A stretch of DNA of 64,000 nt, taken from NCBI GenBank assembly GCA_020633975.1, contig JACKCR010000006.1, forward strand, positions 267,873 through 331,872, written 5' to 3'. Of the stretch, positions 13,896-18,218 are shown piece after piece (the first letter of the stretch is position 1; each line of letters starts with the position of its first letter). Source of the DNA: Candidatus Eiseniibacteriota bacterium. GTDB lineage: Bacteria; Eisenbacteria; RBG-16-71-46; CAIMUX01. The notes beneath the pieces are model-generated. The model saw nothing but the letters and a program-made list of their open reading frames with translations, ran no database searches and was not told the DNA's origin. A program made the translations under genes and the position numbers.

Positions 13896-14969
13896 CTACC
13901 GATATGCGCCCTTCACCTGACCCCACGACACTCGGTCGACCGGCGTAGGATTGCAGCCGCCGTTGAGTTGGCCCAGTGTGCAGAGGGTGAAGAAAAGGCT
14001 CGTCCCGCCACCGCTCGAGTTGCCGTTGAACCCGTCGTTCGGCCCGGCTCCGTCCGGACACCGTCCGATGCAGCTCTCGCCTTCCGACGCGAAACTCCCG
14101 GACCAACCGAGCTGGTCGACCCGGACGTGGAGGTCGGTGAAGAGGTACGCGAGCTGGGTCGTGTCGAGGTCGATCGAAGGCGGCAGCTTCTCGACGACTA
14201 CTCCCGACGGCGGGATGAAGGTCGAGGTCAGGAAGTAGGTCGGCCCCGCACCGAACGTGGCGTACCAGCCGCCGAGGATGATCGCGGCTCCGGTCGGGTT
14301 GTAGAGCTCGATACTGTCGTTCACGAACCGGACGGACGGCGTGGTCGTCCCGAGTTCGTTGATGAGGACGCTCGAACCGAGATCCGGGTTCGGTGCGTCG
14401 TTGCTCGCCCCGAACGTCGAAGTGAGGTCGAGAGTCCAGTAGAGAGCGTTGTCGGTCGGCCCGAGAGGCGGCCCGAGCGCTGCGTCCGGTGCGCGGCAGA
14501 GGGAGACGCCTCCCGAATCGTGCGGCAACGGAGCCCCGCCCACCTGTCCGTAGGCGACGACGTCGCGAGTCAGCTTGAGGTCGTCGATGAGTGCCCCTTC
14601 TCCGCCGATGTCATGGAAGATGTCTCCGAGATCATCGAATGCCAGGTACTCACCGACGGCGATCGTAGTGTCGTCCGGGATGAGAAAGTCACCCAGATCT
14701 CCCGCCAGTTTCCATCCGGTGAGAAGCACGGGCGCAGGGCCGGAGTTGTAGAGTTCCGCGCGCTCGGTTCCCCGGATGACGAGCTCGTTGAGGTAGACCT
14801 CCGCGTAAGCACTCTCCGGGATCGAGAGCACGGTCGCGCCCACGAACACGGCCAGCGACGCCAGCGGTCGAGTGGCCAGCGTGAGCGGGTGGACGGTCGA
14901 TCCGAGCCGTCGGTGGGTTCCTCCTCGGATCGCGGTTCGGGGGCGAGTCGTCGTCGGCTGCAGCATCAT
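13896..14969 (-). CDS. Secreted protein with two lamin-tail (LTD) domains and a short conserved C-terminal motif (357 aa)
   Basis: Real gene is the 3' part of track ORF 13896..17216. ATG ATG at 14969..14964 gives MMLQP...signal peptide ending SIPESAYA. LTD signatures VYLNELVIRGTERAELYNSGPAPVLLTGWKL and VLINELGTTTPSVRFVNDSIELYNPTGAAIILGGWY. Ends RVSWGQVKGAYR. Its start ATG overlaps the stop TGA of the upstream sigma-54 activator gene (ATGA). Confidence 0.7.
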   Translation of the reverse strand: MMLQPTTTRPRTAIRGGTHRRLGSTVHPLTLATRPLASLAVFVGATVLSIPESAYAEVYLNELVIRGTERAELYNSGPAPVLLTGWKLAGDLGDFLIPDDTTIAVGEYLAFDDLGDIFHDIGGEGALIDDLKLTRDVVAYGQVGGAPLPHDSGGVSLCRAPDAALGPPLGPTDNALYWTLDLTSTFGASNDAPNPDLGSSVLINELGTTTPSVRFVNDSIELYNPTGAAIILGGWYATFGAGPTYFLTSTFIPPSGVVVEKLPPSIDLDTTQLAYLFTDLHVRVDQLGWSGSFASEGESCIGRCPDGAGPNDGFNGNSSGGGTSLFFTLCTLGQLNGGCNPTPVDRVSWGQVKGAYR

Positions 14970-17881: not shown

Positions 17882-18218
17882 CTCGTGCCCCCTCGAGATC
17901 TCCCGCCCGCCTCAACGATTCGCCGAGGTCGTTCGAGCACTCTGCCGCACGCGGGAAGTCGCCGGAAGCCGCGTGGATCTCGATCGCATCCCGAAGGACG
18001 GGGAGTGCGTCGGTCCAGCGACCGGCTCGCATCGCGACCCGTCCCTTTACGCGCAGCGCGCGACCGCGTGCGTTCCCTGTCACGTCCAGCTGGAGCACCT
18101 GCTCGGAACAGCGGAGCGCGTCGGCGTCCGCGCCCCGTTCGAGGAACGCTTCCGCCGACTCGACGAGGACACGGAACAGGTCTCCCATTCCCGCGGCCCC
18201 GGGACTCTGGGTCGACAT
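17748..18218 (-). CDS. TPR-repeat fragment, probably the frameshifted 5' part of the sigma-54 activator gene
   Basis: Good start (ATG 18218..18216 preceded by AAGGGGGA) and TPR-like translation (GDLFRVLVESAEAFLERGADADALRCSEQVLQL...). It degenerates about 17870 exactly where the activator frame (offset by 1) becomes TPR-like (RATALEELGTVLRVLGDTARAL). G4 and C5 runs at 17837-17840 and 17888-17892 are candidate indel sites. Confidence 0.5.
   Translation of the reverse strand: MSTQSPGAAGMGDLFRVLVESAEAFLERGADADALRCSEQVLQLDVTGNARGRALRVKGRVAMRAGRWTDALPVLRDAIEIHAASGDFPRAAECSNDLGESLRRAGDLEGARDALSESLQYSASLQPRIHTRDGARRAGHGASCARRHRACSRYTR

Follow-up and report, generated by a model that had tools for sequence, protein, structure and literature searches.

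A sigma-54 activator gene probably split by a heritable one-base insertion in a conserved regulator–LTD gene pair of Eisenbacteria

We analysed a stretch of 64,000 nucleotides (the window hereafter; contig JACKCR010000006.1, positions 267,873 to 331,872) from the metagenome-assembled genome (MAG) of a Candidatus Eiseniibacteriota bacterium (GCA_020633975.1). Its minus strand harbours, side by side, the gene of a sigma-54-dependent activator, that is, a bacterial enhancer-binding protein (bEBP), and the gene of a secreted protein with two lamin-tail (LTD) domains. With good confidence, we take these genes to be a conserved operon of Eisenbacteria, consisting of a one-component sigma-54 activator of ~1050-1083 residues and a secreted LTD protein, in which the activator gene of the window carries a genuine, heritable 1-bp insertion. 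Loci on other contigs are designated below by handles beginning with L.

The split activator gene and its intact form

The activator is encoded by two open reading frames (ORFs) of 156 and 971 codons that are offset by one base (Table 1). In Pfam, the 156-aa ORF was matched by TPR_12 (E 1.6e-10) and TPR_16 (E about 1e-10), and a Shine-Dalgarno-like sequence precedes its ATG. This agrees with the TPR-like product and ribosome-binding site that the first-pass annotation, made from the DNA sequence alone, had assigned to this ORF. The 971-aa ORF encodes the remaining TPR array, a region of ~150 residues without an assigned domain, an AAA+ domain with its lid, a helix-turn-helix (HTH) domain and a basic tail of 43 residues; its Pfam matches were many TPR hits, Sigma54_activat, AAA_lid_14 and HTH_8. 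The PGAP annotation in GenBank places the start of this second protein (MCB9465295.1, 943 aa, sigma-54-interacting regulator) at GTG 17797.

When one C is dropped from the CCCC at 17840..17837, both ORFs are joined to a single protein of 1083 aa. The repaired protein is 99% identical, with 100% coverage, to a 1083-aa protein of an independent assembly, and this full-length identity makes the split-gene pattern more than a chance arrangement. Relative to intact alleles, the lesion comprises one extra C (CCC to CCCC, 17840..17837) and an adjacent G-to-A change that replaces Arg126 with Gln. Codons 1-127 of the 156-aa ORF (18218..17838) correspond to the genuine N-terminal TPR region of the activator, as alignment with the N-termini of intact alleles and orthologues shows, and its last 29 codons are out of frame, running to the TGA at 17750..17748. 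A handover between the two frames within 17830-17915, at G4/C5 runs, had been proposed in the first-pass annotation. The indel at 17840 indeed falls within this interval, whereas the homopolymers present are a G5 (17892..17888) and a C4 (17840..17837). The central proposal, that a single-base frameshift has separated the activator from its N-terminal TPR region, was confirmed by intact alleles of the same species, which encode exactly 1083 residues.

The intact alleles were found in a set of seven conspecific contigs, made up of all members of the 90% protein cluster and a second NCBI MAG of the species, which are 98.9-99.4% identical to the window in nucleotide sequence. The intact 1083-aa allele, with the junction ...TTTGCGGCCCGGATCC..., is present in L001, L005, L006 and L023, and the split allele, with the junction ...TTTGCAGCCCCGGATCC..., in the window, L002, L003 and L004. 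The split allele is thus found in 4 of 8 assemblies (roughly half), a tally not to be read as a calibrated population frequency. JGI metagenomes, scanned for either junction allele, yielded 0 matches and thus contributed no allele counts. In the eight sequences, the insertion is perfectly linked to the single-nucleotide polymorphisms (SNPs) at 17842, 17853 and 17870, three within 31 nt, and other SNPs assort differently from this haplotype. Between the window and each of L002, L003 and L004 there are 24-41 further differences, which means that the split contigs are not copies of one consensus. They also stem from separate samples and assemblers: the allele was recovered in the NCBI MAG, in two contigs assembled by MEGAHIT (k141) and, from a second project, in one scaffold. 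All remaining indels between strains, over 9-16 kb, are multiples of three (18, 9 and 6 nt). One of them concerns an 18-nt tandem unit (~22605..22622, minus strand; repeated SASAFL) in the region encoding the signal peptide of ORF 19583..22831, of which the window has one copy more than L005.

We next consider the ancestral state. Apart from the conspecific cluster, a homologue search with the N-terminal 707 residues returned only TPR proteins of a generic kind, the search being word-seeded and missing the true orthologues, which were instead recovered via the neighbouring LTD gene. The activator of L009 (GCA_034679345.1) has 1070 residues and is 43% identical to the repaired protein over the full length. 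Those of L012/L013 (two further MAGs) have 1052 residues and likewise align over the full length, and that of L024 (a JGI contig), also of 1052 residues, is 52% identical in a single tblastn high-scoring segment pair from residue 1 to 1042. In L009, L012 and L024 the activator starts at the equivalent of ATG 18218, and the frame is unbroken across the junction, where '..PG..RA.ALEELG' is conserved (intact allele, ARDALSQSLQYSASLRPGSIRATALEELG; L024, ARDALRESLRWSSSEKPGPRRAKALEELG; L009, AKETLLESLRLSSGVAPGPHRASALEEFG). Because the orthologues read through the junction from this start, the intact gene is ancestral and the CCCC allele derived. On the side of the orthologues, the proposal of a split gene therefore stands, their start being the equivalent of 18218 and not of 17881.

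In its domains the activator is a bona fide bEBP by everything that could be tested in the sequence, apart from the interrupted frame. It combines PF00158 and the Walker A, Walker B and GAFTGA motifs with a C-terminal Fis-type HTH; only the frame from the native start is interrupted in the window allele. The best sequence matches in the PDB were NifA, FleQ and NtrC (E about 1e-80), and also ZraR. The sensor part of the repaired protein consists of a TPR array of ~560 residues and the ~150-aa region without a domain match. A protein of roughly 1090 residues with the order TPR-GAF-AAA+-HTH had been predicted: the TPR, AAA+ and HTH parts were recovered, whereas the length is 1083 residues and a GAF domain was not detected. 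No GAF family in Pfam matched the ~150-aa region at E<=10, either with the isolated segment or with two orthologous segments, and hhalign of the orthologue alignment against the GAF regions of GAF-containing bEBPs gave a probability of 0.5%. A single-sequence AF2 model of the region reached a pLDDT of 40, and the region is poorly conserved between orthologues. Among the NCBIfam alignments, only that of NifA reaches slightly further upstream of the AAA+ domain. The basic C-terminal tail differs in length and sequence between orthologues.

Table 1. Positions of the features of the activator–LTD locus in the window
Feature	Position	Strand	Remarks
Intergenic region, presumed promoter region	18219..18461	-	Shine-Dalgarno-like AAGGGGGA at 18229..18222, 4 nt before ATG 18218
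5' fragment ORF, 156 aa	17748..18218	-	MCB9465296.1, TPR protein in GenBank
Frameshift site	17837..17842	-	window GCAGCCCCGG; intact alleles GCGGCCCGG
3' ORF, 971 aa from ATG 17881	14966..17881	-	ORF list and Pfam
Sigma-54 interaction AAA+ domain	15533..16033	-	PF00158, E 5.6e-69, 231.6 bits (cut-off 20.2)
Walker A, GESGTGKE	15926..15949	-	motif read, intact
GAFTGA loop, contacts sigma-54	15791..15808	-	motif read, intact
Walker B, LFLDEIG	15725..15745	-	motif read, intact
FREDLYYRL	15548..15574	-	motif read, intact
Fis-type HTH_8 DNA-binding domain	15098..15211	-	PF02954, E 6.8e-10, residues 891-928
Basic C-terminal tail, 43 aa, Arg/Lys-rich	14969..15097	-	…ATPRTRTRRAGRAGRAERAGRGRTPSAKAEPRTKSTKRRTS; runs into LTD start
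Gene junction	14964..14980	-	AGGAGG, then ATGA, then second in-frame ATG
LTD gene, 357 aa	13896..14969	-	H6682_16530, MCB9465294.1, hypothetical in GenBank; Pfam LTD
End of signal peptide, which has a long N-region before it	about 14793..14813	-	...ESAYA/EVY
Two LTD cores	start 14795 and 14366	-
RCPDGAGPNDG motif	14031..14063	-
C-terminal SWGQVKGAYR	13899..13928	-

Pairing of the activator with the LTD gene

At the junction of the two genes the minus strand reads ...GAAGAGGAGGACGTC ATGATG CTG... in the window (in a shorter extract, ...AGGAGGACGTC ATGATG...). The activator stop TGA (14968..14966) shares a 4-nt ATGA overlap with the LTD start ATG (14969..14967), exactly as the first-pass annotation had claimed. 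An AGGAGG (14980..14975) stands 5 nt upstream of this ATG, and a second in-frame ATG follows at 14966..14964. A start further downstream was rejected, as the other in-frame starts are only GTGs within the hydrophobic core of the signal peptide. The overlap together with the strong Shine-Dalgarno sequence fits translational coupling inside one transcript, and the two genes are presumably co-transcribed as a two-gene operon.

The overlap is not confined to the window. It is found in all conspecific loci and in L007, L012, L015 and L017, with an identical ATGATG in L012, and this recurrence in five divergent lineages (the window included) makes it more than chance. Such conservation supports operonic, coupled expression. 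In L024, L009, L016 and L008 a gap of 31-188 nt separates activator and LTD gene in place of the overlap. Where the ATGA overlap is present, the N-region that precedes the signal peptide of the LTD protein is correspondingly long.

We then compared the genomic context of 11 distinct Eisenbacteria LTD loci. A sigma-54 activator gene lies directly upstream of the LTD gene in ten of them (window species, L007, L008, L009/L010/L014, L012/L013/L019, L015, L016, L017, L018 and L024), L011 being the only one without it. The pairing of a regulator with a secreted protein had been regarded as unusual, which was an overstatement: in the LTD family it is the rule. As the activator is upstream in 10 of 11 loci, co-expression of the pair can be viewed as a family trait and not as an oddity of this contig.

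Some members of the set have features of their own. The MAG POMEDNA-B04 holds two paralogous activator-LTD modules (L014 and L017). The activators of L017 and L018 contain GAYTGA and not GAFTGA (at about 4129/4099). In L016 (MAG STL-EIS1, JAXLXQ010000009.1), the activator gene upstream of the LTD gene has a 1-nt deletion within the GAFTGA codons (GAAAAGG-AGCC, 4140..4160), which splits it into ORFs 1669..4410 and 3471..4937. This is either a second independent disruption in the regulator family or a homopolymer assembly error.

Consequences of the split allele and alternative explanations

In the split allele, translation from the native start would end after a TPR fragment of 156 residues, 127 authentic and 29 out of frame, at the stop at 17748. 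The remaining 943-971 codons hold all catalytic and DNA-binding motifs and would have no natural start, so that an N-truncated activator, if produced at all from the chance ATG 17881 or from GTG 17797, would be expected at a low level. The allele would thus most likely be one of lost or reduced function for the regulator, with a possible polar reduction in the expression of the LTD gene.

We examined whether the frameshift might have arisen as an artefact of sequencing or of assembly at a short homopolymer, the true genome encoding an intact protein of 1083 residues. The extra base does lie within a C-run, the consensus of a MAG can hold indel errors, and intact versions at 99% identity exist. 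Against this, the same insertion occurs in four assemblies from differing pipelines and samples, it is perfectly linked to the three flanking SNPs, and no other frame-breaking indel was seen in up to 16 kb compared. Given the linkage, the independent backgrounds and assemblers and the lack of any other frame-breaking indel, a random homopolymer error is very unlikely, and we hold an artefact of either kind to be highly improbable. By its pattern in the sequences, the split is a heritable derived allele segregating in nature. An even smaller chance was given to the idea that the full-length protein is still made from this allele because ribosomes shift by +1 at CCC-C (Pro127), spontaneously or as a programmed event, or that the C-run is a reversible switch for phase variation. 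CCC-N sites are prone to +1 slippage, and if tRNA-Pro slipped by +1 on CCC_C, the product would have exactly the ...SLQPGSIRAT... of the repaired protein. Nevertheless, the reading frame is intact at this site in all orthologues and in half of the conspecifics, and CCC_CGG is accompanied by no stop or rare codon, with the nearest Shine-Dalgarno-like run ~45 nt upstream as opposed to ~3 nt. As for phase variation, a C-run of 3-4 is far too short for slipped-strand variation, and the perfect SNP linkage points to one old event, not to frequent switching. The gene qualifies neither as a prfB-like programmed +1 frameshift gene nor as a phase-variable contingency locus.

An alternative of greater weight, which we consider possible although doubtful, is that the split allele is functional. 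Translation would start at ATG 17881 or GTG 17797 and yield an activator without its first 112-140 residues (~three TPRs), with altered signalling and possibly de-repressed, and the TPR fragment of 156 residues would be made separately. Truncation of the N-terminal regulatory domain of bEBPs often leads to constitutive activity. An SD-like GAGGGGG (17894..17888) is located 6 nt upstream of ATG 17881, every AAA+ and HTH motif is intact, four assemblies with diverged backgrounds retain the allele, and there is no clear nonsynonymous excess once L002 is set aside. On the other hand, ATG 17881 is fortuitous: it is out of frame in intact alleles, and the ORF that surrounds it is translated in a different frame. 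De-repression is not predicted, since the TPR array loses only a small portion, and in L004 the conserved FREDLYYRL has a deletion of 2 aa. In this contig, which has the split allele, the equivalent of 15551..15565 contains a 6-nt deletion and four substitutions in 15 nt, changing FREDLYYRL to FRELLRL; the case is anecdotal.

Signs of decay were sought in the private changes of the contigs. Split contigs had 10 nonsynonymous and 6 synonymous changes, as compared with 9 and 21 in intact contigs (Fisher p=0.058). The excess came from one clustered patch in L002, without which the split contigs had 5 nonsynonymous and 8 synonymous changes. Relaxed selection in the split lineage, suggestive at this p value, was dropped as evidence since the L002 patch drives the excess. 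At the equivalents of 16261..16360 and 14795..14954, L002 has dense patches of private SNPs, mostly nonsynonymous, which suggest recombination with a more divergent strain, or a chimeric consensus from one.

Several points weigh against a conserved operon whose regulator has been disabled in the window. Co-transcription, loss of function and polarity are all deduced from sequence. A consensus scan found no sigma-54 promoter for the operon in the window, and the private changes gave no robust signal of decay in the split lineage. The SD-like sequence before ATG 17881 makes a truncated activator possible. Some of the ENA assemblies may stem from related samples, so the 4:4 tally does not represent a population frequency. 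We nevertheless retain the conserved activator–LTD operon with a heritable insertion in the activator gene as the likely explanation.

The LTD protein, candidate promoters and relation to known systems

The protein encoded downstream of the activator was matched by Pfam LTD (PF00932) with 48.0 bits against a gathering cut-off of 34.3, in two stretches. Its AF2 model (pLDDT 77) consists of two beta-sandwich domains. In a structure search against the PDB, the only confident matches of the model were the Ig-fold domains of lamin A/C and B1 (probability 1.0, TM(target) 0.5-0.6), and no enzyme fold was found. Homologues with 33-70% identity and about 325-420 residues come nearly all from Eisenbacteria. 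They share an N-terminal signal peptide, two cores (..YLNEv..vELYN..), an invariant RCPDGAGPNDG and a C-terminal SWGxhKxxaR. In the family alignment, all members end with a Cys followed within 6-12 residues by SWGxhKxxaR and the stop. This tail had no match among the NCBIfam models and may represent a tag for sorting or anchoring that has gone unrecognised. The same motif ends an unrelated secreted, Cys-rich protein of 1082 residues encoded in the window (ORF 19583..22831, ...ETSWGKVKALFR; motif at 19583..19612, minus strand), and also a ~300-aa ORF beside the LTD gene of L018 (about 7000..7029).

In terms of promoters, no sigma-70-like or sigma-54-like consensus was present in 18219..18461 or within the 3' end of the activator gene, and consensus scans around the operon for sigma-54 sites, sigma-70 sites and terminators gave nothing above chance. 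In L012/L013, a sigma-54-like CGGCACGGTGGTTGCT (4715..4730, 11/12 consensus positions) precedes the activator start by 131 nt and has no equivalent in the window; this -24/-12 match hints at autoregulation in the L012 lineage. The only exact TGGCAC-N5-TTGC in the 64-kb window, where about 0.14 would be expected by chance from base composition, is TGGCACGCGCCTTGCG at 26084..26099 (plus strand), in an intergenic region 8 kb from the operon. The site suggests that the organism uses sigma-54. The start codon of a gene for a DUF6627 protein of 134 residues, ATG 26150, follows 51 nt downstream, and next comes a gene for a C39-like cysteine peptidase/TPR protein (26560..28701). Where an enhancer would be expected, about 85 nt upstream of the site, is a perfect 16-bp palindrome, TTGGACCTCGGTCCAA (25985..26000), with no second copy in the window. 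A connection of this promoter and palindrome with the activator was considered and dropped, the palindrome being single-copy and nothing linking the promoter to the activator.

The TPR-AAA+-HTH architecture is already represented in databases. Proteins with the same layout include P0003, P0004 and P0020, and bEBPs with TPR, Sigma54_activat and HTH_8 (described at JGI as 'NtrC family response regulator/TPR repeat protein') have the same AAA+ domain with GAFTGA, Walker A/B and lid, and the same Fis-type HTH. In contrast to bEBPs of the NtrC/NifA type, the activator of the window has no receiver, GAF, PAS or V4R sensor domain, and its gene is interrupted. It does not reach the equivalog cut-off of any named NCBIfam bEBP family.

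There is also an analogy to the PEP-CTERM/EpsH system, in which the sigma-54 response regulator PrsR, PrsK and the TPR protein PrsT co-occur with proteins carrying a C-terminal sorting motif (Haft et al. 2006, PMC1569441). In both cases, secreted proteins with a short conserved C-terminal motif in common are found in association with a sigma-54 enhancer-binding regulator and TPR repeats. The likeness is one of analogy only. Unlike PrsR, the activator has no receiver, and TIGR02915 gave 319.7 bits against a cut-off of 502.6, with only the AAA+ and HTH parts aligned. The TPR repeats are fused to the activator here, whereas PrsT is a separate lipoprotein, and the tail of the LTD family has no PEP motif, transmembrane helix or Arg-rich end. 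No exosortase was seen, nor a conserved sigma-54 site before the LTD genes. Membership in the PEP-CTERM system was thus ruled out on the missing receiver, the sub-cut-off TIGR02915 score and the different tail motif.

The coexistence of a frameshifted and an intact allele of one regulator in one species has parallels elsewhere. Loss-of-function alleles of global regulators segregate naturally, as in the case of rpoS, lasR and agr variants. The present case differs in that the loss of function is deduced and the organism is uncultured. Taking the observations further, one might envisage the TPR-activator/LTD pair as a dedicated, possibly autoregulated module for a class of surface or secreted proteins of Eisenbacteria, not recognised before and tagged with a C-terminal Cys...SWGxhKxxaR, in function similar to PrsR/PrsT with PEP-CTERM proteins, whose regulator is recurrently knocked out (the CCCC allele and the GAFTGA deletion of STL-EIS1), thereby maintaining 'on' and 'off' strains. 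We mention this as a speculation that is unlikely to hold.

To our knowledge, Eisenbacteria are a phylum without cultured members and without described sigma-54 regulons. In our literature search, no paper was found that names Eisenbacteria together with sigma-54, and a description of the activator-LTD operon as a conserved module was not found. The GenBank entries MCB9465296.1 and MCB9465295.1 represent two parts of a single gene, and their annotation should state that this is a frameshifted allele of a 1083-aa regulator. The case also illustrates that, even without reads, a genuine polymorphism that disrupts a gene can be told apart from an assembly error by means of independent metagenome assemblies. 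The current view of bEBPs and of operon structure is not overturned. Segregating frameshift alleles of regulators are common events. For the Eisenbacteria themselves, the conserved module of a regulator and a secreted LTD protein, with its likely co-expressed output and strains that may be natural knock-outs, would provide a starting point for asking what the abundant LTD proteins do.

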